From: Kofleriaceae bacterium
GTDB taxonomy: Bacteria > Myxococcota_A > Polyangia > Haliangiales > Haliangiaceae
Length of the DNA stretch: 64,000 nt
Direction of reading: 5' to 3'
Assembly (NCBI GenBank): GCA_046597055.1
Contig: JBKJLC010000293.1
Span: forward strand, 43,974-107,973
Part shown: positions 17,438-34,669 of the stretch, piece after piece
Position numbering within the stretch: the stretch's first letter is position 1
Layout of the letters: each line of letters opens with the position of its first letter
Notes under the pieces: generated by a model
What the model saw: the letters and a program-made list of their open reading frames with translations, nothing else
Told to the model about the DNA's origin: nothing
The model's database searches: none
Translations under genes and position numbers: made by a program

Positions 17438-19204
<1,767 letters not shown>

Positions 19205-23769: not shown

Positions 23770-23837
23770 CCTGCGCTGGTCGCCTGCACGTGACCGGTGG
23801 CGGTCGGCCGGGCGTCGGCGACCGCGGCGGTGATGCG

Positions 23838-23909
23838 TACCCACGAAGGGAATCGAACCCTCTCCATCGGTTTGAAAGGCCGAGGTCCTGACCACTGGAC
23901 GACGCGGGC
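23838..23909 (-). tRNA. tRNA-Glu(TTC)
   Basis: Cloverleaf GCCCGCG/CGTGGGT, loop CT-TTC-AA, T-loop TTCGATT; no encoded CCA. Confidence 0.85.
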
Positions 23910-23923
23910 GGTGACAGACGGGG

Positions 23924-23991
23924 TGCCTCTGGCAGGAATCGAACCTGCTCACCAGGTGTCGGAGACCCGGGTCGGATCCGTCCACAGAGGC
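23924..23991 (-). tRNA. tRNA-Arg(CCG), reduced D-arm
   Basis: GCCTCTG/CAGAGGC-A, loop CT-CCG-AC, T-loop TTCGATT. Confidence 0.7.
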
Positions 23992-24002
23992 GAGAAACGC
24001 GG

Positions 24003-24076
24003 AGCCCACCGACGGATTCGAACCGTCCTCTCTCCCGTACCAGGGGGGTGTGTCCGACCAGGATCACCAGATGGGC
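24003..24076 (-). tRNA. tRNA-Thr(GGT)
   Basis: GCCCATC/GGTGGGC-T, loop CT-GGT-AC. Confidence 0.8.
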
Positions 24077-24089
24077 GTGAGCGTTGCGG

Positions 24090-24162
24090 TCGGGATCGAG
24101 AGGATCGAACTCTCCCATTTCGCCGTGTGAGAGCGACCTCACCCCCAGGTGAGCTGATCCCG
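24090..24162 (-). tRNA. tRNA with Val(CAC) anticodon and Pro-like acceptor stem
   Basis: CGGGATC/GATCCCG-A, loop CT-CAC-AC. Confidence 0.75.
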
Positions 24163-24169
24163 ATTTCAA

Positions 24170-24243
24170 TGGAGCACTCGCCCGGATTTGCACCGGGATG
24201 ACACGGTTTGCAGCCATGCGCCTGACTCTTCGGCCACGAGTGC
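24170..24243 (-). tRNA. tRNA-Cys(GCA)
   Basis: GCACTCG/CGAGTGC-U73-CCA, loop CT-GCA-AA, T-loop TGCAAAT. Confidence 0.88.
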
Positions 24244-24247
24244 GTGG

Positions 24248-24321
24248 TGGTGGACCCGGGGGGATTCGAACCCCCGTCTCTGCTGTGCGAGAGCAGGATC
24301 TTGCCGCTGGACGACAGGCCC
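24248..24321 (-). tRNA. tRNA-Ala(CGC)
   Basis: G3:U70, loop CT-CGC-AC, encoded CCA. Confidence 0.9.
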
Positions 24322-24335
24322 GGAAGGAACACGAG

Positions 24336-24408
24336 CGGCCCTGACGGGAATCGAACCCGCCTGGATCTCATAGACAGTGAGAGAACGTCACCAGACGTAT
24401 CCAGGGCC
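24336..24408 (-). tRNA. tRNA-Asp(GTC)
   Basis: GGCCCTG/CAGGGCC-G73, loop CT-GTC-TA, unusual long D-stem ACGTC/GACGT. Confidence 0.8.
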
Positions 24409-24430
24409 GTGAACGAGAGACGAATGATGT

Positions 24431-24504
24431 TGGTGGAGTCGGACGGATTCGCACCGTCGTCACTGACATGCCGAGCCAGTGTTCTGCTGTTGAACTACGA
24501 CCCC
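24431..24504 (-). tRNA. tRNA-Ala(GGC)
   Basis: G3:U70, loop TC-GGC-AT (C33), T-loop TGCGAAT, encoded CCA. Confidence 0.85.
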
Positions 24505-24508
24505 GGGG

Positions 24509-24581
24509 TCCCGTCGATGGGAATCGAACCCACCTGGTACTGGGAGACAGCCAGCTGACGTCACCAGACGTCTCCGACGAG
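24509..24581 (-). tRNA. tRNA with Asp(GTC) anticodon and atypical C1:G72/A73 acceptor
   Basis: CTCGTCG/CGACGGG-A, D-arm GACGTC-TGGT-GACGTC, loop CT-GTC-TC. Confidence 0.7.
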
Positions 24582-24591
24582 CAGACAGACG

Positions 24592-24662
24592 TGGAGCTGG
24601 AGGGAATCGCACCCCCGTCGCTGGCATGTCGGACCAGCATTCTGCTGTTGAACTACAGCTCC
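24592..24662 (-). tRNA. tRNA-Val(GAC)
   Basis: GGAGCTG/CAGCTCC-A, loop CC-GAC-AT (C33), T-loop TGCGATT. Confidence 0.8.
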
Positions 24663-24666
24663 TCAG

Positions 24667-24738
24667 TCGGAATGACAGGACTTGCACCTGCAGCCTCACC
24701 GTCCCGAACGGCGCGTTCTTCTATTGAACTACATCCCG
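24667..24738 (-). tRNA. tRNA-Pro(CGG)
   Basis: C1:G72, A73, loop TT-CGG-GA, T-loop TGCAAGT. Confidence 0.88.
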
Positions 24739-24841
24739 AGGCGGACGAGGGCCCGACCCGGGGGGGCCGGTCGGACAGGTCCTCGTCCTGTGGAAACATG
24801 AGAGCTCGGCCGCAGGCGCCGCCTGACGCGAACGTAGTGAG

Positions 24842-24927
24842 CGGAAGGAAAGGGAATCGAACCCTCGACACATGGATCCTGTGCGCGCGATTAGCAGTCG
24901 CGGTCCTCGACCAGCCGGACTCCTTCC
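24842..24927 (-). tRNA. tRNA-Ser(GCT)
   Basis: GGAAGGA/TCCTTCC-G73, loop CT-GCT-AA, long variable arm. Confidence 0.85.
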
Positions 24928-24999
24928 CGAACCGACCCACGACGGACGCTGACTGTCGACCGAGATCGGCAGCCGGGCTCCGGGGTGGGTATCGGTTTG

Positions 25000-25091
25000 C
25001 GGAGGGAGAGGGAGTCGAACCCCCAAGGCATCTCGAAGATGCTCGCGCGGCTTTCGAAACCGGCACCGTCGCCACATCGGCTTGCCCCTCC
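25000..25091 (-). tRNA. tRNA-Ser(CGA)
   Basis: GGAGGGG/TCCCTCC-G73, loop TT-CGA-AA, long variable arm. Confidence 0.85.
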
Positions 25092-25205
25092 AGATCGATG
25101 CCTCACGCGCCACCCTGCTGGCGCCACGACCGGGGCCATCACTCCCTGGTCGCGGCGCTCCGCCGCCGCCGCCCACCCGCCGCCACGTGTGTCAACGCGA
25201 GAGAG

Positions 25206-25754
25206 TCACGAGGCCAGCTCCCCGTCGCTCTCGATCTCGCCGGTCCAGTACAAGTAGTCACGCCACGCGTCAGGCATCGACCGCGTGCTGACCCTGATCG
25301 TCACCGCCGGCACCCAGGTCGGGCGCGCCGGCTCCATCCGCAGCTTCATCCCGGCCTCGGCCGGCGTCCGGTTGCCCTTCGATCCGTTGCACGGATAGCA
25401 GCAGGTCACGATGTTCTCCCAGGTGGTCTTGCCGCCGCGGGCACGGGGAACCACGTGGTCGTAGGTCAGCTCCGCCAGCGTGCACTTGGTCGCGCAGTAC
25501 TGGCACTTGTAGCCGTCACGCGCGTAGATGTTCACGCGCGAGAACTTGACGGGCTTGCGGTATCGCCGGAACGCACGGATCAACCGCACGACCGCCGGCA
25601 CCTTGATGATGAGCGTCACCGCTCGGATCTCGGCGTCGTACTCCTCGACCACCTCCACCTTGCCGAGGGTCAGGAGGGTGATCGCCCGCTGCCACGGGAT
25701 GACCTTGATGGGCTCGTACCCCTGCGACAGGAGCAGCGTCGTCGCGTGACTCAT
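25206..25754 (-). CDS. HNH endonuclease (McrA-like) embedded in the tRNA array
   Basis: RDGYKCQYC, TYDHVVPRARGG, WENIVTCCYPCNGSKG; AGGA upstream. Confidence 0.92.
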   Translation of the reverse strand: MSHATTLLLSQGYEPIKVIPWQRAITLLTLGKVEVVEEYDAEIRAVTLIIKVPAVVRLIRAFRRYRKPVKFSRVNIYARDGYKCQYCATKCTLAELTYDHVVPRARGGKTTWENIVTCCYPCNGSKGNRTPAEAGMKLRMEPARPTWVPAVTIRVSTRSMPDAWRDYLYWTGEIESDGELAS

Positions 25755-25816
25755 GACGGTCCGTGTTCCTTTCCCCGGTCACTGTCTTTCAGGCGCGCCC
25801 CGGTGCCAGCGCGCCA

Positions 25817-25838
25817 TCGGCCCACGACGTGTGGGCAA
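25817..25838 (-). promoter_or_regulatory. Putative Ro-binding bulged-C hairpin in the HNH leader
   Basis: TTGCCCAC-ACGTC-GTGGGC-C-GA, the same motif as in the Y-like RNAs. Confidence 0.5.
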
Positions 25839-25851
25839 AAACTGCGTGTCG

Positions 25852-25926
25852 TGCCCTCCGTCGGATTCGAACCGACACTGCCCAGATTCTGAGACTGGTG
25901 ACTCCTTCCAGTTGGTCTAGGAGGGC
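25852..25926 (-). tRNA. tRNA-Leu(CAG), short variable loop
   Basis: GCCCTCC/GGAGGGC-A, loop CT-CAG-AA, 5-nt variable region. Confidence 0.82.
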
Positions 25927-25927
25927 G

Positions 25928-26004
25928 TGGAGTGATCGACGGGACTCGCACCCGCTAGGACGAGGTTCACGGCCTCGCGCCTGGACGACTTTGGCTTCGA
26001 TCAC
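25928..26004 (-). tRNA. tRNA-His(GTG), lacking G-1:C73
   Basis: GTGATCG/CGATCAC-U73-CCA, loop CC-GTG-AA (C33), T-loop TGCGAGT. Confidence 0.78.
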
Positions 26005-26006
26005 GG

Positions 26007-26077
26007 TCCGCCCGGGAGGAATCGCACCTCCGTCGTCCGGTTATCGGCCGGGTGCTCTGCTGTTGAGCTACGGGTGG
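26007..26077 (-). tRNA. tRNA-Ile(GAT)
   Basis: CCACCCG/CGGGCGG-A, loop CC-GAT-AA (C33), T-loop TGCGATT. Confidence 0.75.
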
Positions 26078-26084
26078 GAAAGAC

Positions 26085-26212
26085 TGGGGTGGGTGGCCTG
26101 GATTCGAACCTGGCATCTGCGGCTCCCTGAGAACCCTCTTCTGACGGCCCGGTGACGGGCAAGCTGACGAGGAGGGGCCATAACCGCCGTCCTGCCACTG
26201 GACGACACCCAC
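26085..26212 (-). ncRNA. tRNA-Y RNA chimera 1 (permuted Ro-binding module in the anticodon loop)
   Basis: Acceptor GTGGGTG/CACCCAC-C-CCA, D and T arms intact, ~55-nt insert containing CTTGCCCG-TCAC-CGGGCCGT...GGGTTCTC. Confidence 0.75.
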
Positions 26213-26226
26213 GTACGAAGTAGCAG

Positions 26227-26353
26227 TGCAGGCAGCTGGACTCGAACCAGCGTCACACGCGTTAACACGATAACCATCCAGCGTCGGCCCGCGACCGGGC
26301 GAGGTGAGTACAGGACGGATCCACGTTGCGCTACCGGGCTGAGCTACACCTGC
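26227..26353 (-). ncRNA. tRNA-Y RNA chimera 2
   Basis: GCAGGTG/TGCCTGC-A; insert CCGTCC...CTCGCCCG-GTCG-CGGGCCGA...GGATGGTTATCG. Confidence 0.8.
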
Positions 26354-26374
26354 GAAGAAACACAACACGAGTCG

Positions 26375-26499
26375 TGTGGACGGCCGGAGTCGAACCGGCG
26401 CGTGCGGTTTGCGACGATAACCGACTTCGACGGCCCGTGACCGGGCGAGGGTTGTGAAGACGAGATCTTTCCGCCGTCCTACCGTTAGACGACGTCCAC
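26375..26499 (-). ncRNA. tRNA-Y RNA chimera 3
   Basis: GTGGACG/CGTCCAC-A; insert CTCGCCCG-GTCA-CGGGCCGT...CGGTTATCG. Confidence 0.8.
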
Positions 26500-26504
26500 G
26501 TGCG

Positions 26505-26632
26505 TGCAGGTGGCTGGATTCGAACCAGCGGCCAACGGATTGATAATCGATGACCATCCGACATCGGCCCGTCGCCGGGCGAGGTTGTGAAGGACGGGTT
26601 TACGTTGCTCTACCGGACTGAGCTACACCTGC
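26505..26632 (-). ncRNA. tRNA-Y RNA chimera 4
   Basis: GCAGGTG/CACCTGC-A; insert CCGTCC...CTCGCCCG-GCGA-CGGGCCGA...GGATGGTCATCG. Confidence 0.8.
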
Positions 26633-26647
26633 AAAGAAAAACATGCG

Positions 26648-26719
26648 TCTGGATGACTGGAATCGCACCAGCGGCCTCGTGATCCCCGAACACGCGCCCT
26701 GCTCCTGAGCTACACCCAG
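26648..26719 (-). tRNA. tRNA-Pro(GGG)
   Basis: C1:G72, A73, loop TC-GGG-GA (C33), T-loop TGCGATT. Confidence 0.82.
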
Positions 26720-26720
26720 A

Positions 26721-26819
26721 TGGGGCGGGACTTTGGATTCGAACCATGTAGACCGATAACCATCCATCGTTCGGCCCGTTTCCGGGCAAGGGCACTTTGA
26801 TAGACGGACTCGTCCCGCC
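26721..26819 (-). ncRNA. D-armless tRNA-Y RNA chimera 5 (acceptor, Ro module and T-loop)
   Basis: GGCGGGAC/GTCCCGCC-CCA; CCGTCT...CTTGCCCG-GAAA-CGGGCCGA...GGATGGTTATCG; TGG-TTCGAAT-CCA. Confidence 0.75.
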
Positions 26820-26824
26820 AGAAG

Positions 26825-26894
26825 TCGCAACGGAAGGACTCGAACCTTCACCGGCGCGGATATGAGCCGCGCGTCCTCGCCCGAGGTCGCTGCG
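26825..26894 (-). tRNA. tRNA-CAT (Met or Ile2), reduced D-loop
   Basis: CGCAGCG/CGTTGCG-A, loop CT-CAT-AT. Confidence 0.72.
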
Positions 26895-26895
26895 A

Positions 26896-26966
26896 TGGGG
26901 CAACGGCGGGAGTCGCACCCACTGACCGGCGGGAACCCCGCCGGTCCTCCACGCGAACTCGTTGCC
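26896..26966 (-). tRNA. Degenerate tRNA-like gene (GTT at the tip of an over-paired arm)
   Basis: GGCAACG/CGTTGCC acceptor and TGCGACT T-loop, but the anticodon arm is a perfect 10-bp hairpin. Confidence 0.45.
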
Positions 26967-26971
26967 ACGAG

Positions 26972-27038
26972 CACGCCGCCAGAGAATCGAACTCTGCAGT
27001 CCGGGGTTGGAATCCAGACTCTTCCCAGAAGGCGACGC
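26972..27038 (-). tRNA. tRNA-Trp(CCA), minimal D-arm
   Basis: GCGTCGC/GCGGCGT-G73, loop TT-CCA-AC. Confidence 0.7.
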
Positions 27039-27107
27039 AAGTTGCAAGCATCAACATGTCACTTCCACTCCCCTCCAGTTACAGCTCGAGAATAGAAGTG
27101 GCGATCG

Positions 27108-27177
27108 TGCCACCGACAGGATTCGAACCCGTACCGACGACGTTCGTAGCGTCGCGTCCCATCCTCGGGACGGTGGC
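27108..27177 (-). tRNA. tRNA-Arg(ACG)
   Basis: GCCACCG/CGGTGGC-A, loop CT-ACG-AA. Confidence 0.82.
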
Positions 27178-27179
27178 AG

Positions 27180-27372
27180 ACAGGCAAGTGGCTGTGTTGG
27201 AGTGCGCCTTGTTCAGGGGCGCGGCGTCCAGAGCGCGCGGTTGCCCGTTTACGCTCGTCGACACGCACGCGGCGATCTACGAGAGACCGCCTCGCGCTGG
27301 CTCGCATCGGTCGCCCGATGGTCGCTACCTTGGGCCCGTTATAGTTACGGTAACCAACACATTCCGGCCCGT
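27180..27372 (-). ncRNA. Y-like RNA carrying a 23S rRNA helix-69 mimic
   Basis: 5' ACGGGC-C-GG-AA-TGTGTTGG pairs with 3' CCAACACA-GCCAC-TT-GCCTGT; interior starts with CCGTAACTATAACGGGCCCAAGGTAGCGA (27322-27350); bounded by tRNAs on both sides. Confidence 0.75.
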
Positions 27373-27376
27373 GACG

Positions 27377-27449
27377 TATCCCTGGGGGGAATCGAACCCG
27401 CCATACCTGGTTTGAGAGACCAGTAGACTGACCACTGTCTGACAGGGAC
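27377..27449 (-). tRNA. tRNA-Glu(CTC)
   Basis: GTCCCTG/CAGGGAT-A, loop CT-CTC-AA. Confidence 0.85.
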
Positions 27450-27499
27450 ATCTTCGCGTGGCGCTTGCGCCCAAGGCGCCTCACGCCACGCGATCTTCG

Positions 27500-27572
27500 A
27501 GGGCCCGGCGGGAATCGAACCCGCACCTCGCAGTTTAACAGACTGCCGCTCAGCCAGTTGAGCTTCGGACCC
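27500..27572 (-). tRNA. tRNA-Asn(GTT)
   Basis: GGGTCCG/CGGGCCC-U73, loop CT-GTT-AA. Confidence 0.85.
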
Positions 27573-27644
27573 AGACACGCCACGGTCGTGAGACCGCGGC
27601 GCGTGCGTGTTGAGGGCGACTCTCGTCGTGGCCTGGGCCGAAGC

Positions 27645-29282
27645 CTAGGCGCGGGCGAAGTCGCTGATCACCGGCGGCGTCGCCGTGTCGAAACCGACCA
27701 CGTCGAGCATGCCGGCGTCGTTCGGGTCCGCGATCGTGAACCCGTTCGAGGTCATCCCGACCACCACCAGCTTGGCCGGGATGCCGCGCGCCTGTCGATA
27801 GGCGCGCAGGGCCTGGGCCGGGTGCACGCTCCCGGCCCAGGTCTCGCTGTCCGTGTACACCACGAAGGTGTCCACATCCACCTTGTGCCGCTGCGCCCAG
27901 ATCATCGGGAGCGCGCAGTCGGTTCCACCCATCGGCAGCTTGGCGACCGCCGCGACCACGTCGTCGAGCCGCTGGCGCGGCGAGATCGACAGGGTCGTGA
28001 TGCCCGACTCGCCACCGCCGTGCATGCCGCCGTAGCCACCGCTCGCCGCGGTGAAGCCCACGAACGTGTGGTCACGCTCGGTCGCCGCGGTGATCAGCGC
28101 CATCGCCGCGCTGCCGACCCGCGGCGTCAGGCCGGGCACCCCGGCGATGGTGCCGCACGCCATCGAGCCCGACACGTCGAGCGCGAGCAGCATGCGCTTG
28201 CCGGCCGGCTCGACCGCCTTGAACGAGGCGTAGAACGCACCGTCCAGGGCGTCGATGATCGGCGTCACCGGCGTCCAGGTGCCGCTGCCACGGACGCTCT
28301 TGCCACCCTGGTAGGTCAGGAGCGCCGCCAGGACCGCGACCGGGTGGACGCGGGCCTTGGCGATCCGGTTCGCATCACCCAGCCGCGCGACCACGGTGTT
28401 GGTCGCGTTGGCACCCGGCGCGAGCAAGCCCGCACGGGTCATCGTGGCCAGGTTCCGGATCATCGCCGTCATGGGCATGTCGACCAGCAGCGCGTCCCAC
28501 ACGCCGGCGTCGTTCAGCCAGCGCGTCGGCAGCGTCTCGCGCGGCAGCCGGAACTCGCGCACCAGCGCCGCCACCTCGGCCGCAGTACCGGCCGCCTTCA
28601 CCGCCTCCATGCCGATCAGCAACCGCAGCGCCGGGTCGGCGCTCGCGCCATCCGGCACGGTTCCCTTGGTCACCCACGAGAACAGCCGATCGTGCGATGG
28701 CGACGCGGCGCGCGGGTGCGCGAGCCGCAGCAGGTCTCGGTTCGACCAGCCGTCCCGCTGCTGGTACTTCACCAGCTGCAGCGCGAGGTCGGCCGCCGGC
28801 TTGTCGTTGAACCAGCCGGCCACCGCCTTGCGCATGCCACGGCCCCAGCCGCCGAAGCCCTGCGCGTACTCCGCGAAGTGCATGAGGTGAGTGCCGATGC
28901 GGCAGACCGTCGGCAGGGCAGCGTAGGCGCTCTTGCGAGTCGCCTCGTCGCCGAGCTTGGCGGCCAGCGCCAGGGCGAAGATCGCCGGGTCGTTCTTGGG
29001 CGCCCGACCCGCCTGCGAGATCTCGGCGATCCGCGCGACCGTGCGCGGACCGTCGGCTGCCACGCAGCGGACCACCGTCTGGGCAGTCTCGAGCGTCAGC
29101 TTCTGCTCGGAGATGTAGTAGGTGCCGCCCTCGCTACCCAGGATGAGGAAGCGATCGAGCCGCGCCCAGTCGTCGACCGGCCAGGCGAAGCCCCCGGCCA
29201 GGTTCGGCACCTGCGCCGTACCCGGGATCGGCTGCGACTGCGGCGTCGCCTGCGTCGAGAAGAACTTGGTGAACTTGAACAC
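27645..29282 (-). CDS. rsr: Ro60/Rsr (TROVE + vWA) RNA-binding protein, 545 aa
   Basis: NLAGGFAW, RFLILGSEGGTYY, GGWGRGMRKAV, KYQQRDGWSNRDLLRLAHP, AMIRNL, MIDAS LDVSGSM, GGTDCALP, YTDSETW, GMLDVVGFD; GGAGG 6 nt before GTG at 29282. Confidence 0.96.
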   Translation of the reverse strand: MFKFTKFFSTQATPQSQPIPGTAQVPNLAGGFAWPVDDWARLDRFLILGSEGGTYYISEQKLTLETAQTVVRCVAADGPRTVARIAEISQAGRAPKNDPAIFALALAAKLGDEATRKSAYAALPTVCRIGTHLMHFAEYAQGFGGWGRGMRKAVAGWFNDKPAADLALQLVKYQQRDGWSNRDLLRLAHPRAASPSHDRLFSWVTKGTVPDGASADPALRLLIGMEAVKAAGTAAEVAALVREFRLPRETLPTRWLNDAGVWDALLVDMPMTAMIRNLATMTRAGLLAPGANATNTVVARLGDANRIAKARVHPVAVLAALLTYQGGKSVRGSGTWTPVTPIIDALDGAFYASFKAVEPAGKRMLLALDVSGSMACGTIAGVPGLTPRVGSAAMALITAATERDHTFVGFTAASGGYGGMHGGGESGITTLSISPRQRLDDVVAAVAKLPMGGTDCALPMIWAQRHKVDVDTFVVYTDSETWAGSVHPAQALRAYRQARGIPAKLVVVGMTSNGFTIADPNDAGMLDVVGFDTATPPVISDFARA

Positions 29283-29288
29283 GGCACG

Positions 29289-29348
29289 CCTCCGGCCCAC
29301 GCGGTGGGCACTGCTGGTTGGGCTCGGCCACGCACCATGCGCGGCGAG
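29289..29348 (-). promoter_or_regulatory. Two bulged-C Ro-type hairpins in the rsr leader, one overlapping the SD
   Basis: CTCGCCGCGCA-TGG-TGCGTGGC-C-GAG (29323-29348) and TGCCCAC-CGC-GTGGGC-C-GGAGG (29289-29310). Confidence 0.5.
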
Positions 29349-29444
29349 CGAGATCTGTAATGAGGAATCGCTTCGCGAAGCGCTCGATGCCTCCCGGCGG
29401 CATCGCCGCCGCACCACCGGAGGTGGCGGACTGGCGAGTCTTCG

Positions 29445-29516
29445 AGCCGGTCGGAGGAATCGAACCTCGTTGGGTCGCTTACGGAACGACTGCTCGCCCA
29501 GCGAGCTACGACCGGC
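29445..29516 (-). tRNA. tRNA-Thr(CGT), 8/4-type fold
   Basis: 8-bp acceptor GCCGGTCG/CGACCGGC-U, 4-bp T-stem GAGG/CCTC, loop TC-CGT-AA (C33). Confidence 0.75.
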
Positions 29517-29521
29517 GGAAA

Positions 29522-29587
29522 CTGGCGGACAAGTGGCACTCGTGGGGGTCTGTTATCAGGAGAACCCACGAGCATCGGCCCGCGCAG
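29522..29587 (-). ncRNA. Minimal Y RNA (canonical orientation)
   Basis: GCGGGC-C-GA-TG-CTCGTGGG-TTCTCC...CCCACGAG-TGCCAC-TT-GTCCGC; lies between two tRNAs just upstream of rsr. Confidence 0.8.
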
Positions 29588-29658
29588 AGCGGCGCGCGGG
29601 AGTTGCACCCGCACGGTCAGGGTGGAGGCCTGGCATGCTGCTGTTACATCAGCGCCGC
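29588..29658 (-). tRNA. tRNA-Gly(TCC)
   Basis: GCGGCGC/GCGCCGC-U73, loop CC-TCC-AC (C33), T-loop TGCAACT. Confidence 0.82.
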
Positions 29659-29668
29659 GACACGAAAG

Positions 29669-29739
29669 AGCAGGTGGTGGGAATCGAACCCGCGATCCCG
29701 GCATGGCGTACCGGTGTGTCACCACAACACTTCACCTGC
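29669..29739 (-). tRNA. tRNA-Gly(GCC)
   Basis: GCAGGTG/CACCTGC-U73, loop AC-GCC-AT (C33). Confidence 0.82.
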
Positions 29740-29822
29740 GGCGGTGTGCCTCGAGTGTCCTCGGGGCCACCTGACGGTCGTCGGCGCGCTCGGCAGGGCT
29801 TCGCGCGTCGACGAACGCATCG

Positions 29823-29897
29823 TGGGTCGGGCGGGAATCGAACCCGCGTCGGGGCAGATTAAGAATCTGCTGCAAAGCCAGCGTTTGCTACCGACCC
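29823..29897 (-). tRNA. tRNA-Lys(CTT)
   Basis: GGGTCGG/CCGACCC-A, loop TT-CTT-AA. Confidence 0.88.
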
Positions 29898-29926
29898 AGT
29901 TGCCGCGCCAGGCGCGGCGAGTCTCG

Positions 29927-29999
29927 TCCCACCCCCTGGAATCGAACCAGGACCTCTCGGGCTTCAGCCAAGCGCGCAGACCACATGCGCCAGGGTGGG
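29927..29999 (-). tRNA. tRNA-Phe(GAA)
   Basis: CCCACCC/GGGTGGG-A, loop CT-GAA-GC. Confidence 0.82.
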
Positions 30000-30088
30000 G
30001 TTGTGCGGTCGCCGCCGACCGCTGGGGAGCGGGTGACGACGACCTTCCGAAATGGGCGCCCGCGCTACCGGGCGCCCCATCATTCGTC

Positions 30089-30107
30089 TCTTCGGTTGTC
30101 AGAGATC
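30089..30107 (-). promoter_or_regulatory. boxA-like antitermination element
   Basis: GATCTCTGACAACCGAAGA resembles rrn leader/spacer boxA sequences; located near the 5' end of the array. Confidence 0.5.
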
Positions 30108-30177
30108 CACCCCGCGCGTCCGTCGGCCCGTGCGGGCAGACCTCGAGCGGGGCCGCGCCGTTTCATGGGCGCAGCAG

Positions 30178-30251
30178 TACCGGGCCCAGGATTCGAACCT
30201 GGATCTGTACGGTTCAGAGCCGTCCGTCGTGCCGAGTTGGACCAGCCCGGT
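30178..30251 (-). tRNA. tRNA-Gln(CTG)
   Basis: ACCGGGC/GCCCGGT-A, loop CT-CTG-AA. Confidence 0.85.
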
Positions 30252-30303
30252 GCGTGTCAGTAAGTGCGTCGATCGCCAGTCCCATGACTGACAACGATCG
30301 CAG

Positions 30304-30388
30304 TGGGGCGCCCAGGTTTTGAACCTGGCGGGTCGCGTGCGACGGCGGCTTTACAGGCCGCCCCGTCTCCATAGCGGTCTATCGCCCC
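30304..30388 (-). tRNA. tRNA-Tyr(GTA), first gene of the array
   Basis: GGGGCGA/GCGCCCC-A, loop CT-GTA-AA, long variable arm. Confidence 0.85.
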
Positions 30389-31864: not shown

Positions 31865-34669
31865 GTGCCCGCGCGCTACCTGATCGGCGTCGATCTCGGG
31901 ACGACCAACACCGCGGTCGCCTACGTGGACACGCGCGCGACCGACCCACGCGTGAAGGTGTTCGAGGTCGTGCAGCTGGTTGCCCCCGGTGAGGTCGCCC
32001 CTCGCCGGCAGCTGCCATCGTTCCTGTACCTGCCGGGCGAGCACGATCTGGCGCCTGCCGAGACCGCGCTGCCGTGGCGACCGGTCGGCGCCGCCGGCGA
32101 CAACCGCATCGTGGTCGGCGAGCTCGCCCGTCACCAGGGCGCGCGCAACCCGTCGCGGATGATCGCCTCGGCCAAGTCCTGGCTGTGCCACCCGGGCGTC
32201 GACCGCAAGGCCGCCATCTTGCCGTGGGGCGAGGGCAGCGGACCGCGGCTGTCGCCGGTGGCCGCCCAGGCAGCGATCCTCGCGCACGTGCGGGCGGCCT
32301 GGGACGACCTGATGTCCGGGGAACCGGACAGCCAGTTCGTGGCCCAGGACGTCGTGGTCACCTGCCCCGCCTCGTTCGACGAGGCCGCCCGCGAGCTGAC
32401 CCAGGAGGCGGCCGCGCTGGCCGGCCTCGAGCGGGTGGTGCTGCTCGAGGAGCCCCAGGCGGCGTTCTATGCCTGGATCGATCGCCACCACAGCCGGGCC
32501 CGCACGCTCGCGCCCGGCGAGCGCGTGCTGGTGTTCGACGTCGGCGGCGGGACGTCGGACTTCACGCTGATCACGGTCGACGCCGACGGCGGCTTCGAGC
32601 GCACCGCGGTCGGCGATCATCTGCTCCTCGGTGGCGACAACGTCGACCTGACCCTGGCCAAGCTGGTCGAGCAGCGGCTCACCGCCGATGGCGGCAAGAA
32701 GCTCGATGCCCTCCAGTGGCACGGTCTGGTCCACGCCTGCCGGCTGGCCAAGGAGACGCTGCTGGGCGACGCCGCCCCGGCCGAGGTGCCGATCACCGTC
32801 GCCAGCCGCGGCTCGCGCTTGATCGGCGGCACGCTGCGCGACCAGATCACGCGCGCGGAGCTCGAGCGGGTGCTGTTCGACGGCTTCTTCCCGGTCGCGA
32901 CCGCCGACGCCACCCCGGTCCGCGGCCGCGGCGGCCTGCAGGAGATGGGGCTGCCGTACGCGAGCGACCCGGCGGTGACGCGGCACCTGGCGTCGTTCCT
33001 GGCCCGCCACGGCGCGGCCCGGGTCGACGCGGTGCTGTTCAATGGTGGCGCCATGACTCCAGTCGCGCTGCGCGCGCGCGTGCTCGGGCAGCTGGCGGCG
33101 TGGCAGCCCGATGCGCCACCCCCGCGCGAGCTCGAGGCGATCGCACCCGAGCTGGCGGTCGCCGTGGGCGCCGCCTATTACGGGCTGGTCCGGCGCGGCC
33201 TGGCGACCCGCATCCGCGGTGGTACTCCGCGCGCGTTCTACATCGGCGTGGCGCGCGTGGCGGCGTCGGGCGGCGTCGCCGCGGCGCGGGTCGAGACCCA
33301 CACCGCGGTGTGCCTGGCCGGCAAGGGTCTCGACGAGGGCACCACGGTCGAGCTCGACCGCGACTTCGAGCTGGTGACCAACCGTCCGGTGCGGTTCCGG
33401 TTGTACTCGTCGAGCACGCGGACTGACCCGCCCGGCACGCTGGTGCCGATCGGCGATGGCCGCGCCGACACGATCGACGACGGCTCCGATCTGCTCGAGC
33501 TGCCGCCGATCGTCACGGTGCTGCGCGCGCGCGGCAAGAGCGCGGTCACGGTCCGGGTCCAGGCGACCGTCACCGAGCTGGGCGCGGTCGAGATCTGGTG
33601 CCACGACGTCGCCGATCCGACCGCGCGCTGGCGGCTATCGTTCGACGTACGCTCGGGTGGCTCGCCGGCGGCCGACGACGACACCGCGGCCAGCGCGGCG
33701 CCGCACCCGCGCATCGACGAGGCCAAGGCGCGCGTGACCGACGGGTTCCGCGGCGACCCCGGGCTGCTGGCGCCGCTCACGCGCGAGCTCGAGGAGATGC
33801 TCGAGGCGCGGCGCGACGAGTGGTCGATGCACGCGACCCGCGCGCTGTTCGACGCCCTGGCCGACGTGGTCGAGACCCGGCGTCGGTCGGCCGATCACGA
33901 GCAGCGCTGGCTCGGCCTGGCCGGGTTCTGCCTCCGGCCCGGCACCGGCGCCCCGCTCGACGCCTGGCGGGCGCGCCAGATGTGGGGCGTGTTCAACGAG
34001 GGGCTGGTCCACGGCAAGACCGAGGCGTCGCGGCTGGCCTGGTGGATCGTGTGGCGGCGGATCGCCGGCGGCCTCATCCCGGGCCAGCAGGAGCAGATCT
34101 ACGACCGGCTGGCGACGCTGCTGTTGCCGAGCGCGCGCCAGCAGAAGAAGCTGAGCGAGATCAAGCCGTCGAAGCAGGAGCTCGGTGAGATGTGGCGCGC
34201 GGTCGCCAGCCTCGAGCGCATCCCGGTCGCGCACAAGCTGAAGCTCGGCGACGAGCTGATGCGGCGGATGGAGACCCGCAAGGGTCGCGAGGACGCTGTC
34301 CACCTGTGGGCGCTCGGCCGGATCGCCGCGCGGGTACCGCTGTACGGGCCGCTCAACACGGTCGTGCCGGCGTCGAAGGCGGCGGCGTGGCTCGACCAGC
34401 TGCTGGTGTGGGACTGGCCGGAGCCCGACAAGGTCGCCTTCTCGCTGGCGCAGCTCGGCCGGCGCACCGACGACCGCACCCGCGAGCTCTCGGAGCCGCT
34501 GCGCGCGCGCCTGGCCGCCTACCTGCGCGGGCAACCCGGCGGCGACCGCGCCGCGATCCTGGTCGAGCAGGTGGTCGCGCTCGAGGCCCGCGAGGAGCGG
34601 GTCGCGCTCGGCGACACGCTGCCGGCCGGCTTGCGGCTGATGGTCGACGACCCGCCGCCCCCGGCGTGA
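31865..34669 (+). CDS. Large Hsp70-like protein with C-terminal extension (DUF3731-like)
   Basis: GVDLGTTN, EEPQAAF, DVGGGTSD; C-terminal GFCLRPG, WRRIAGGL, WALGRIAARVPLYG. Confidence 0.88.
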   Translation: MPARYLIGVDLGTTNTAVAYVDTRATDPRVKVFEVVQLVAPGEVAPRRQLPSFLYLPGEHDLAPAETALPWRPVGAAGDNRIVVGELARHQGARNPSRMIASAKSWLCHPGVDRKAAILPWGEGSGPRLSPVAAQAAILAHVRAAWDDLMSGEPDSQFVAQDVVVTCPASFDEAARELTQEAAALAGLERVVLLEEPQAAFYAWIDRHHSRARTLAPGERVLVFDVGGGTSDFTLITVDADGGFERTAVGDHLLLGGDNVDLTLAKLVEQRLTADGGKKLDALQWHGLVHACRLAKETLLGDAAPAEVPITVASRGSRLIGGTLRDQITRAELERVLFDGFFPVATADATPVRGRGGLQEMGLPYASDPAVTRHLASFLARHGAARVDAVLFNGGAMTPVALRARVLGQLAAWQPDAPPPRELEAIAPELAVAVGAAYYGLVRRGLATRIRGGTPRAFYIGVARVAASGGVAAARVETHTAVCLAGKGLDEGTTVELDRDFELVTNRPVRFRLYSSSTRTDPPGTLVPIGDGRADTIDDGSDLLELPPIVTVLRARGKSAVTVRVQATVTELGAVEIWCHDVADPTARWRLSFDVRSGGSPAADDDTAASAAPHPRIDEAKARVTDGFRGDPGLLAPLTRELEEMLEARRDEWSMHATRALFDALADVVETRRRSADHEQRWLGLAGFCLRPGTGAPLDAWRARQMWGVFNEGLVHGKTEASRLAWWIVWRRIAGGLIPGQQEQIYDRLATLLLPSARQQKKLSEIKPSKQELGEMWRAVASLERIPVAHKLKLGDELMRRMETRKGREDAVHLWALGRIAARVPLYGPLNTVVPASKAAAWLDQLLVWDWPEPDKVAFSLAQLGRRTDDRTRELSEPLRARLAAYLRGQPGGDRAAILVEQVVALEAREERVALGDTLPAGLRLMVDDPPPPA

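Follow-up and report, generated by a model that had tools for sequence, protein, structure and literature searches.

What kind of RNA is encoded by tRNA-like elements that carry an additional hairpin and lie beside a gene for the Ro60 protein Rsr? The question is raised by five elements, E1–E5, in the window, a stretch of 64,000 nucleotides from a Kofleriaceae bacterium with an 8.4-Mb genome of 72% G+C. They belong to an array of tRNA genes on the minus strand (23837-30388), which contains 25 genes called by ARAGORN and several that ARAGORN missed, and which also hosts rsr, an HNH endonuclease gene and open-ended Y RNAs. E1–E5 share the strand of rsr and are located 0.8-1.6 kb downstream of it, upstream of the HNH gene. 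The rsr product matches human, Xenopus and Deinococcus radiodurans Ro60 with E values of 1e-128 to 1e-131. The features, with scores from covariance model R2, are:

26085-26212, minus strand: element E1, 76.4 bits with model R2; capped bulged-C helix (core match) at 26144-26163
26227-26353, minus strand: element E2, 92.1 bits with model R2; capped bulged-C helix (core match) at 26284-26303
26375-26499, minus strand: element E3, 86.8 bits with model R2; capped bulged-C helix (core match) at 26430-26449
26505-26632, minus strand: element E4, 112.9 bits with model R2; capped bulged-C helix (core match) at 26564-26583
26540-26546, minus strand: retained anticodon-type loop of E4, TTATCAA (7 nt), after the insert, with ATC at the anticodon place
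26721-26819, minus strand: element E5, 33.9 bits with model R2; capped bulged-C helix (core match) at 26771-26790
27645-29282, minus strand: rsr (Ro60), with TROVE and vWA_Ro60 domains
25206-25754, minus strand: HNH endonuclease gene in the array

All five elements were found on the minus strand at the places given by a preliminary description of the window, and its inventory of their parts held as well. Each of E1–E4 has an acceptor stem of 7 bp, a D arm and a T arm, and E5 carries the same insert with no D arm. The core CTYGCCCG-N4-CGGGCCGW is exact in all five, which are its only matches in the window (0.18 ± 0.41 expected from 100 shuffles), and the whole genome contains six matches, five of them in E1–E5. 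The helix is closed by a 4-nt loop in every element and the loop varies (TCAC, GTCG, GTCA, GCGA, GAAA). Past the bulged C one pair only is kept (Y-G), the next holding in 13 of 30 sequences. A second stem and a GGTTAT-like motif were also found. What did not hold was the placement of the insert, which had been taken to replace the anticodon loop: about 54 nt long, it lies within the anticodon stem, at 28/29-29/30, and in E4 (54 nt, ~26549-26602) within the 5' strand of that stem.

E4 has a complete tRNA body with discriminator A and no encoded CCA, and E2 is its paralogue (78% identical); with introns allowed, ARAGORN calls both as intron-bearing tRNAs. The strict loop test was passed by E4 only, the distal hairpin loops being ~6 nt in E2, ~5 nt in E3 and ~3 nt in E1. 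In E1 the T arm region contains a single mismatch and a single additional base, and the element ends in C73 followed by an encoded CCA. E5 has a T loop and an encoded CCA and is alone among the five in carrying an exact GNCGAANG motif. No coherent set of tRNA identity elements was seen in E2–E4. A G-1:C73 acceptor end is clear in none of E1–E5, and a His-type end considered for E5 was rejected because its orthologues do not keep G-1:C73. Minimum-energy folding by itself failed to give a cloverleaf, and an Rfam scan of E1–E5 assigned them to none of its families at the gathering cut-off.

We aligned and modelled thirty elements, some from the window and the rest from close relatives, and a wider set of 116 then gave model R2; L091 and L106 were left out of the element set as YrlA-order or mis-bounded. 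The fold begins with a 7-bp acceptor stem that holds both ends, a D arm and an anticodon stem of 2-3 bp, which opens into a side arm made of a 6-bp stem, a pyrimidine-rich internal loop and the bulged-C helix capped by its loop. After the side arm come a YUAY motif, a distal hairpin, a variable loop and the T arm. The distal hairpin 3' of YUAY is the anticodon hairpin, known in the YrlA literature as the 'V arm'. YUAY, which the collection pattern required, reads UUAU in E2, E3 and E5 and takes variant forms in E4 and E1. Across the 116 members, in an alignment fitted to the model and including kin that are not independent, 95.1% of cells are paired and 27 of 33 pairs show two-sided changes; none of 500 shuffles scored as high, and slid controls reached 31-47%. 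The bulged-C helix is paired in 98.6% of cells over the same 116 sequences, but it is almost invariant, with two-sided change in only 3 of 6 pairs, so that covariation says little on that helix.

Conservation of a tRNA body extends beyond the stems. Here and below, counts over 132 or 133 elements refer to members among the matches listed and include related genomes, so that their significance is overstated. The proximal anticodon stem has at least two pairs in 119 of 132 listed elements, compared to 44 ± 5 with mismatched partners. Tertiary contacts of tRNA are kept nearly throughout the 133 listed elements: U8-A14 in 133, a count affected by the favouring of T8 and A14 in boundary calling, the D-loop GG (G18G19) in 132 and R15-Y48 in 122. 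CCA is encoded in 14 of 132. G-1 is present in 40 of the 46 elements with C73 and in 5 of the 87 others, so that 40 of 133 listed elements, D. radiodurans RNA b among them, have an end like that of tRNA-His without having a His anticodon; among real tRNAs this end occurs in 27 of 882, 26 of which are tRNA-His. For E1–E5, the sequence shows a full tRNA fold with a three-way junction where the anticodon stem opens.

The same modules, at the same spacing, make up the bacterial Y RNA YrlA (RF02553): Ro motif, second stem, YUAY, hairpin, T arm and D arm. YrlA likewise lies beside rsr (within 4 kb) on the same strand and keeps the tRNA tertiary-contact bases. The order differs, however. In the elements the D arm precedes the T arm, whereas YrlA, as depicted in bioRxiv 10.1101/312249 and PMC4201824, ends in the Ro stem and has an acceptor stem closed by a loop. 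The elements are thus a circular permutation of YrlA, with the Ro helix capped and the acceptor stem holding the ends, as the preliminary description had recognised; its term 'circularly permuted' has to be reversed, since relative to tRNA the elements are unpermuted and YrlA is the permuted form. The GGTTAT motif to which it drew attention is the YUAY already described for YrlA (PMC4201824).

The permutation can be seen directly when elements are compared with RNAs of the other order. Lower-scoring pattern matches include YrlA-order RNAs with the same motif and spacing, and 28 of these among the matches listed were used to build a YrlA-order profile. When cut in the cap loop, 109 of 133 listed elements cover at least 80% of this profile, against 0 of 133 in native order and 1 of 133 cut at random; the median scores are 52.5, 26.6 and 31.2 bits, respectively. 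Ten of the 28 YrlA-order RNAs have an anticodon-type loop in the 'V arm', where such a loop is found also in seed sequences of PMC4201824. As members of Rfam YrlA these candidates were rejected, the best over 20 loci scoring 49.9 bits, below 69, and they are called YrlA-order by layout only.

RNase P cleavage leaves M. smegmatis YrlA with an acceptor end that is free and carries a CCA tail (PMC4201824); the processed RNA is in two pieces with an open Ro stem, while the elements are in one piece. They share with Y RNAs in general the bulged-C helix of the Ro60 site, and differ from them in that this stem does not arise from pairing of the 5' and 3' ends. Since their topology is neither that of YrlA nor that of Y RNAs in general, the elements are not filed as YrlA; they are best described as tRNA-ordered Y RNAs and would work as Y RNAs do. 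One further predicted tRNA-like RNA, b7a-tRNA, is found near RtcB and occasionally beside Rsr (Burroughs and Aravind 2016, via bioRxiv 10.1101/312249); the summary in that preprint does not mention a Ro-site insert.

Comparison with the Rfam model, which the preliminary description had suggested, did yield YrlA hits in the window, but they straddle neighbouring elements at 18-31 bits, the best (31 bits) running across two genes at less than half of the gathering score of 69. If taken at face value, the 3' half of one element and the 5' half of the next would form the functional unit. Readings of this type are given by Chen et al. for Plesiocystis, Sorangium So0157-2 and Crocosphaera; those for the first two appear in a table of PMC4201824, the Crocosphaera readings given there run into rsr, and its methods mention few, long-stemmed hits in cyanobacteria and deltaproteobacteria. 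We regard units of this kind as very unlikely. Over 16 neighbour pairs the acceptor stem has 6.5 Watson-Crick pairs within elements and 4.4 across them, and for E4/E3 the figures are 7 and 3. Many elements are solitary, with no D arm downstream (Crocosphaera), and in Sorangium the YrlA of the list extends into the tRNA gene that follows. The YrlA scores are far below 69. Some published YrlA predictions can be re-read as chimeras of two neighbours.

The identity of the hairpin can be judged from D. radiodurans. Genome G263 encodes the Rsr of PDB 2nvo, and its locus contains the Yrn1 and Yrn2 probe sequences of PMC4201824. Both RNAs have a two-stranded core, GGGC-C-G/YYGYCC, which is the core of the window elements, and Rsr protects G7, G8, C9, G11 and A12 of Yrn1 (PMC4201824). 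The proposal that the hairpin is the Ro60-site helix was borne out by this match to the Rsr-protected site. In Yrn1 the core is followed by GGTTAC; the ends of Yrn1 and Yrn2 form the Ro stem, which in Yrn1 replaces the acceptor stem.

Three further elements of G263, 146, 145 and 96 nt long, correspond to RNAs a, b and d as drawn in Fig. S3 of PMC4201824: length, ends and most numbered positions agree, with a few labels off by one. They score 67.9, 56.3 and 43.7 bits with model R2, and by sequence RNAs a, b and d are members of the family. Like E1–E5 they have an acceptor-like stem with the ends, a capped Ro hairpin and a T arm, next to rsr; their genes stand among tRNA genes on the upstream side of rsr. 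An Asp-type loop is retained in RNA a. RNA b lacks an anticodon loop and has a long variable arm, and RNA d, like E5, is without a D arm. The three RNAs are said to have been described first by Chen et al. in 2000. According to PMC4201824 they are expressed, UV-induced and bound by Rsr less strongly than Yrn1; they fall outside its definition of Y RNAs, its drawings show them without D arm or cloverleaf, and its accessible text reports no homologues. The preliminary description had known of no account of this arrangement, and here it has to yield, as RNAs a, b and d already have it, though not under the name of Y RNAs. They offer the strongest support that the family is expressed and bound, and they are also what chiefly limits its novelty and its binding strength.

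Their weak binding suggests that the capped helix may be a poorer site. In a phage system, CGAA changes weaken binding 3-4 fold (PMC12135203). The motif GNCGAAN0-1G is exact only in E5, E1–E4 carrying GCCG-NN-G, and the lack of it in four of five window elements, given that effect, argues against strong binding; in this region AAG is the commonest continuation, in 27 of 132 listed members. The elements might then be low-affinity or decaying copies, either spacer-like relics of tRNAs or substrates of Rsr, with open-ended Y RNAs doing the main work. Besides the weak binding of RNAs a, b and d, the copy number of 0 to 4 among close relatives and the divergence of E1 and E3 (11.7 and 18.5 bits) point in this direction. 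We nevertheless consider decay unlikely, because fold and motif are strictly conserved across many phyla and viruses and model R2 finds members in 43 of 111 Deinococcus genomes.

To what extent do the elements accompany rsr? A DNA pattern free of Ro60 information matched at least 120 genome loci and 14 viral loci, with full flanks for 80 of the at least 120 genome loci, so the prevalence is a lower bound. The matches listed come from Myxococcota, Chloroflexota, Gemmatimonadota, Armatimonadota, Deinococcus, cyanobacteria, Planctomycetota, Actinomycetota, Proteobacteria and viruses, and 116 of the 158 listed have tRNA order. Among the matches listed, rsr is present in 62 of 65 loci of at least 11 kb and missing from 3, and all 96 rsr hits are on the same strand as the elements. 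A survey of 151 genomes of the phylum found elements in 9 of 9 with strong Ro60, on the same contig, and in 1 of 142 others, where a truncated rsr adjoins the element; the training set of the model had included at least two of the nine. Another covariance model, R1, also matches ordinary tRNAs, and only its hits above 62 bits and longer than 110 nt were counted. Such hits occurred in 20 of the 24 genomes with rsr and in 1 of the 37 others, but R1 had been trained on 15 of those genomes, and we therefore rested the association on the Ro60-blind pattern and the phylum survey. The tie between homologues and Ro60 genes that had been anticipated is thus supported.

Other genes recur at the 77 listed loci, among them RtcB in 5 and another RNA ligase in 3, and it could be asked whether the hairpin is bound by a different protein encoded at the locus, such as HNH, rather than by Rsr. 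A copy of the hairpin precedes the HNH gene too. HNH, however, is found in 27 of the 77 and rsr in 62, and the core is the mapped Rsr site of Yrn1 as published; we give this idea hardly any credence.

Several loci depart from the common layout. At L170:9824-9946 (genome G035) and L041:7053-7216 the Ro core of the element is degenerate and the loop has ATC, and rsr was not detected in G035, a genome 82% complete. At L187:5865-5998 (minus strand), a second locus of Sorangium So0157-2, the same tRNA frame and loop are found, but the Ro core is replaced by another hairpin; this element precedes a divergent TROVE gene listed in a table of PMC4201824, with a related hairpin in its leader. An RNA ligase with an N-terminal OB domain is encoded in the array of L028, L030 (4699-5772, minus strand) and L063 and is absent from the array of the window.

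A canonical 7-nt anticodon-type loop was detected in 61 of 132 listed members, compared to 1.4 ± 1.2 in shuffles, and is absent in 71, E1–E3 among them. The loop-bearing members have 24 different anticodons, and the loop ends 9-11 nt before the T stem. When two bases upstream of the insert are combined with three before the loop, 48 of the 61 regain a 5-of-5 stem, and with a 3 + 2 split 37 do so, which places the insertion at 28/29-29/30. Loop nucleotides 37-38 are those of the modal real tRNA in 45 of 55 cases, against 29 ± 2.5, and G36 is accompanied by G37 in 11 of 11.

These loops, which copy natural tRNA loops, and the stem restored by removal of the insert, in E4 as well, would suit an intron that is excised at 28/29-29/30, with the halves ligated by RtcB or otherwise into ordinary tRNAs. 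The host genome contains four rtcB genes, and ligases are found at some listed loci, as stated above. Yet the 71 members named above have no usable loop, and the discriminator fits the anticodon, by a table of tRNA identity elements, in just 25 of 61 (19.8 expected, p ~0.055). Six loops, including that of E4 (ATC), have A34 anticodons, which occur in 0 of 1015 real tRNAs of these loci. Anticodons differ between orthologues that are 82-95% identical, and acceptor stems stay while anticodons change. The same module occurs in YrlA-order RNAs, where an intron is impossible. A group I core would not fit into 54 nt. Four of 24 listed RNA runs, mapped to the homologue at Sorangium locus L114, contained no spliced joint; two of them, from one study, give a contig over rsr and an unspliced element, and two are without coverage. 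Such contigs cannot show ends or exclude DNA, and the L114 member has a degenerate loop. The D. radiodurans members, for their part, were reported at full length (146, 145 and 96 nt) in the published figure. An intron is improbable to our minds.

Caged tRNAs are a variant of the same idea: Rsr would sit on the side arm, a nuclease would excise the insert at 28/29-29/30, a ligase would seal the halves, and stress would release fresh tRNAs, the loop-less members acting as non-spliceable competitors. Such protein-catalysed release of tRNAs is not known to us from bacteria, and this too we hold to be a long shot.

The reading that we prefer, with a probability of roughly three in four, is that these RNAs are processed as tRNAs are and, as predicted from the hairpin, bind Rsr. 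E1–E5 would be Y-type partners of Rsr built in tRNA order; by sequence, their extra arm is a loop-closed version of the Ro-binding module of YrlA and Yrn1. The tRNA machinery would cut the elements from a polycistronic transcript of the array through RNase P, 3' trimming and CCA addition; a sigma-70 promoter was looked for and none was found. With their bulged-C helix the elements would then bind Rsr, giving its ring a stable handle of tRNA shape, which would engage tRNA-recognising proteins during translation stress. The anticodon loops, natural-looking and often swapped, might serve as decoys or sensors for anticodon nucleases and not in decoding, a further step that we offer tentatively, with rather more doubt than confidence. 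Hughes et al. raise anticodon-nuclease inhibition for YrlA; Salmonella YrlA was uncut by an induced anticodon nuclease (PMC7790460), which counts against this step.

For the tRNA-like part of bacterial Y RNAs, the family gives a one-piece form with an acceptor end, in which about half of the members keep an intact anticodon loop. The 'V arm' of YrlA appears as a displaced anticodon arm, and permutation within tandem copies, as in this array, would be a simple origin of YrlA. With a structure assigned to RNAs a, b and d, processing, charging, decoy activity and Rsr binding become testable in a tractable organism. Our literature search turned up nothing on the family, on anticodon loops retained in it or on a Ro site in the rsr leader, which does not prove their absence from print.

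Copies of the Ro site outside the elements indicate that Rsr may have other partners at the locus:

25818-25837, minus strand: capped Ro-site hairpin in the HNH leader
27180-27372, minus strand: open-ended Y-type RNA whose cargo begins with a 23S rRNA-like stretch
29293-29310, minus strand: capped Ro-site hairpin running into the rsr Shine-Dalgarno sequence
29525-29583, minus strand: open-ended Y RNA of Yrn2/YrlB type (the ends form the Ro stem), before rsr

A hairpin abutting the rsr ribosome-binding site was found by pattern in 23 of 24 relatives and by eye in the 24th, and in 17 of 49 distant loci among the matches listed, compared to 53 of 2145 control starts; folded in isolation, the leader hairpins do not surpass shuffled sequences (z 0.68 and 0.27). 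Ribosomal-protein leaders are the model for autoregulation by free protein. By analogy, free Rsr would bind the hairpin at its own and at the HNH ribosome-binding site and repress translation, and Y RNAs would titrate Rsr, so that Rsr output would be matched to the Y RNA pool. We lean towards such autoregulation as the probable role of the leader hairpin, and the leader copy of the Ro site makes it testable.

Relatives have one to three short open-ended Y RNA genes before rsr. In the RNA at 27180-27372 the first 31 nt of the cargo are 93.5% identical to E. coli 23S rRNA, presumably the helix 69-71 region. This 23S-like Y RNA is also present in L026-L034, L046, L060, L092 and L124, which are relatives and an Armatimonadota locus, and the rRNA-like pattern gave 0 viral hits. 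The occurrence of leader copies, open-ended Y RNAs and elements at one locus suggests a set of Rsr partners with one handle and different cargo.

Some other features of the array were recorded. Another capped Ro-site hairpin lies within a longer stem at 30095-30160 (minus strand), with no tRNA arms. The tRNA-like RNA at 26895-26966 (minus strand) has an acceptor stem, a T-like arm and CCA; its D arm is not clear, and its anticodon arm is replaced by a 10-bp hairpin with a 3-nt loop (z -2.9). The tRNAs at 26003-26080, 25925-26000, 26966-27040 and 24085-24160 (minus strand) received no ARAGORN call and have Ile, His, Trp and Val anticodons by eye; many tRNAs of the array have non-standard T loops, and its His gene is without G-1:C73. 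On the opposite (plus) strand the array is flanked by a DUF2760 gene and by two Hsp70-like genes (17438-19204 and 31865-34669), one of which is a fusion to DUF3731, and similar genes flank the array in relatives.
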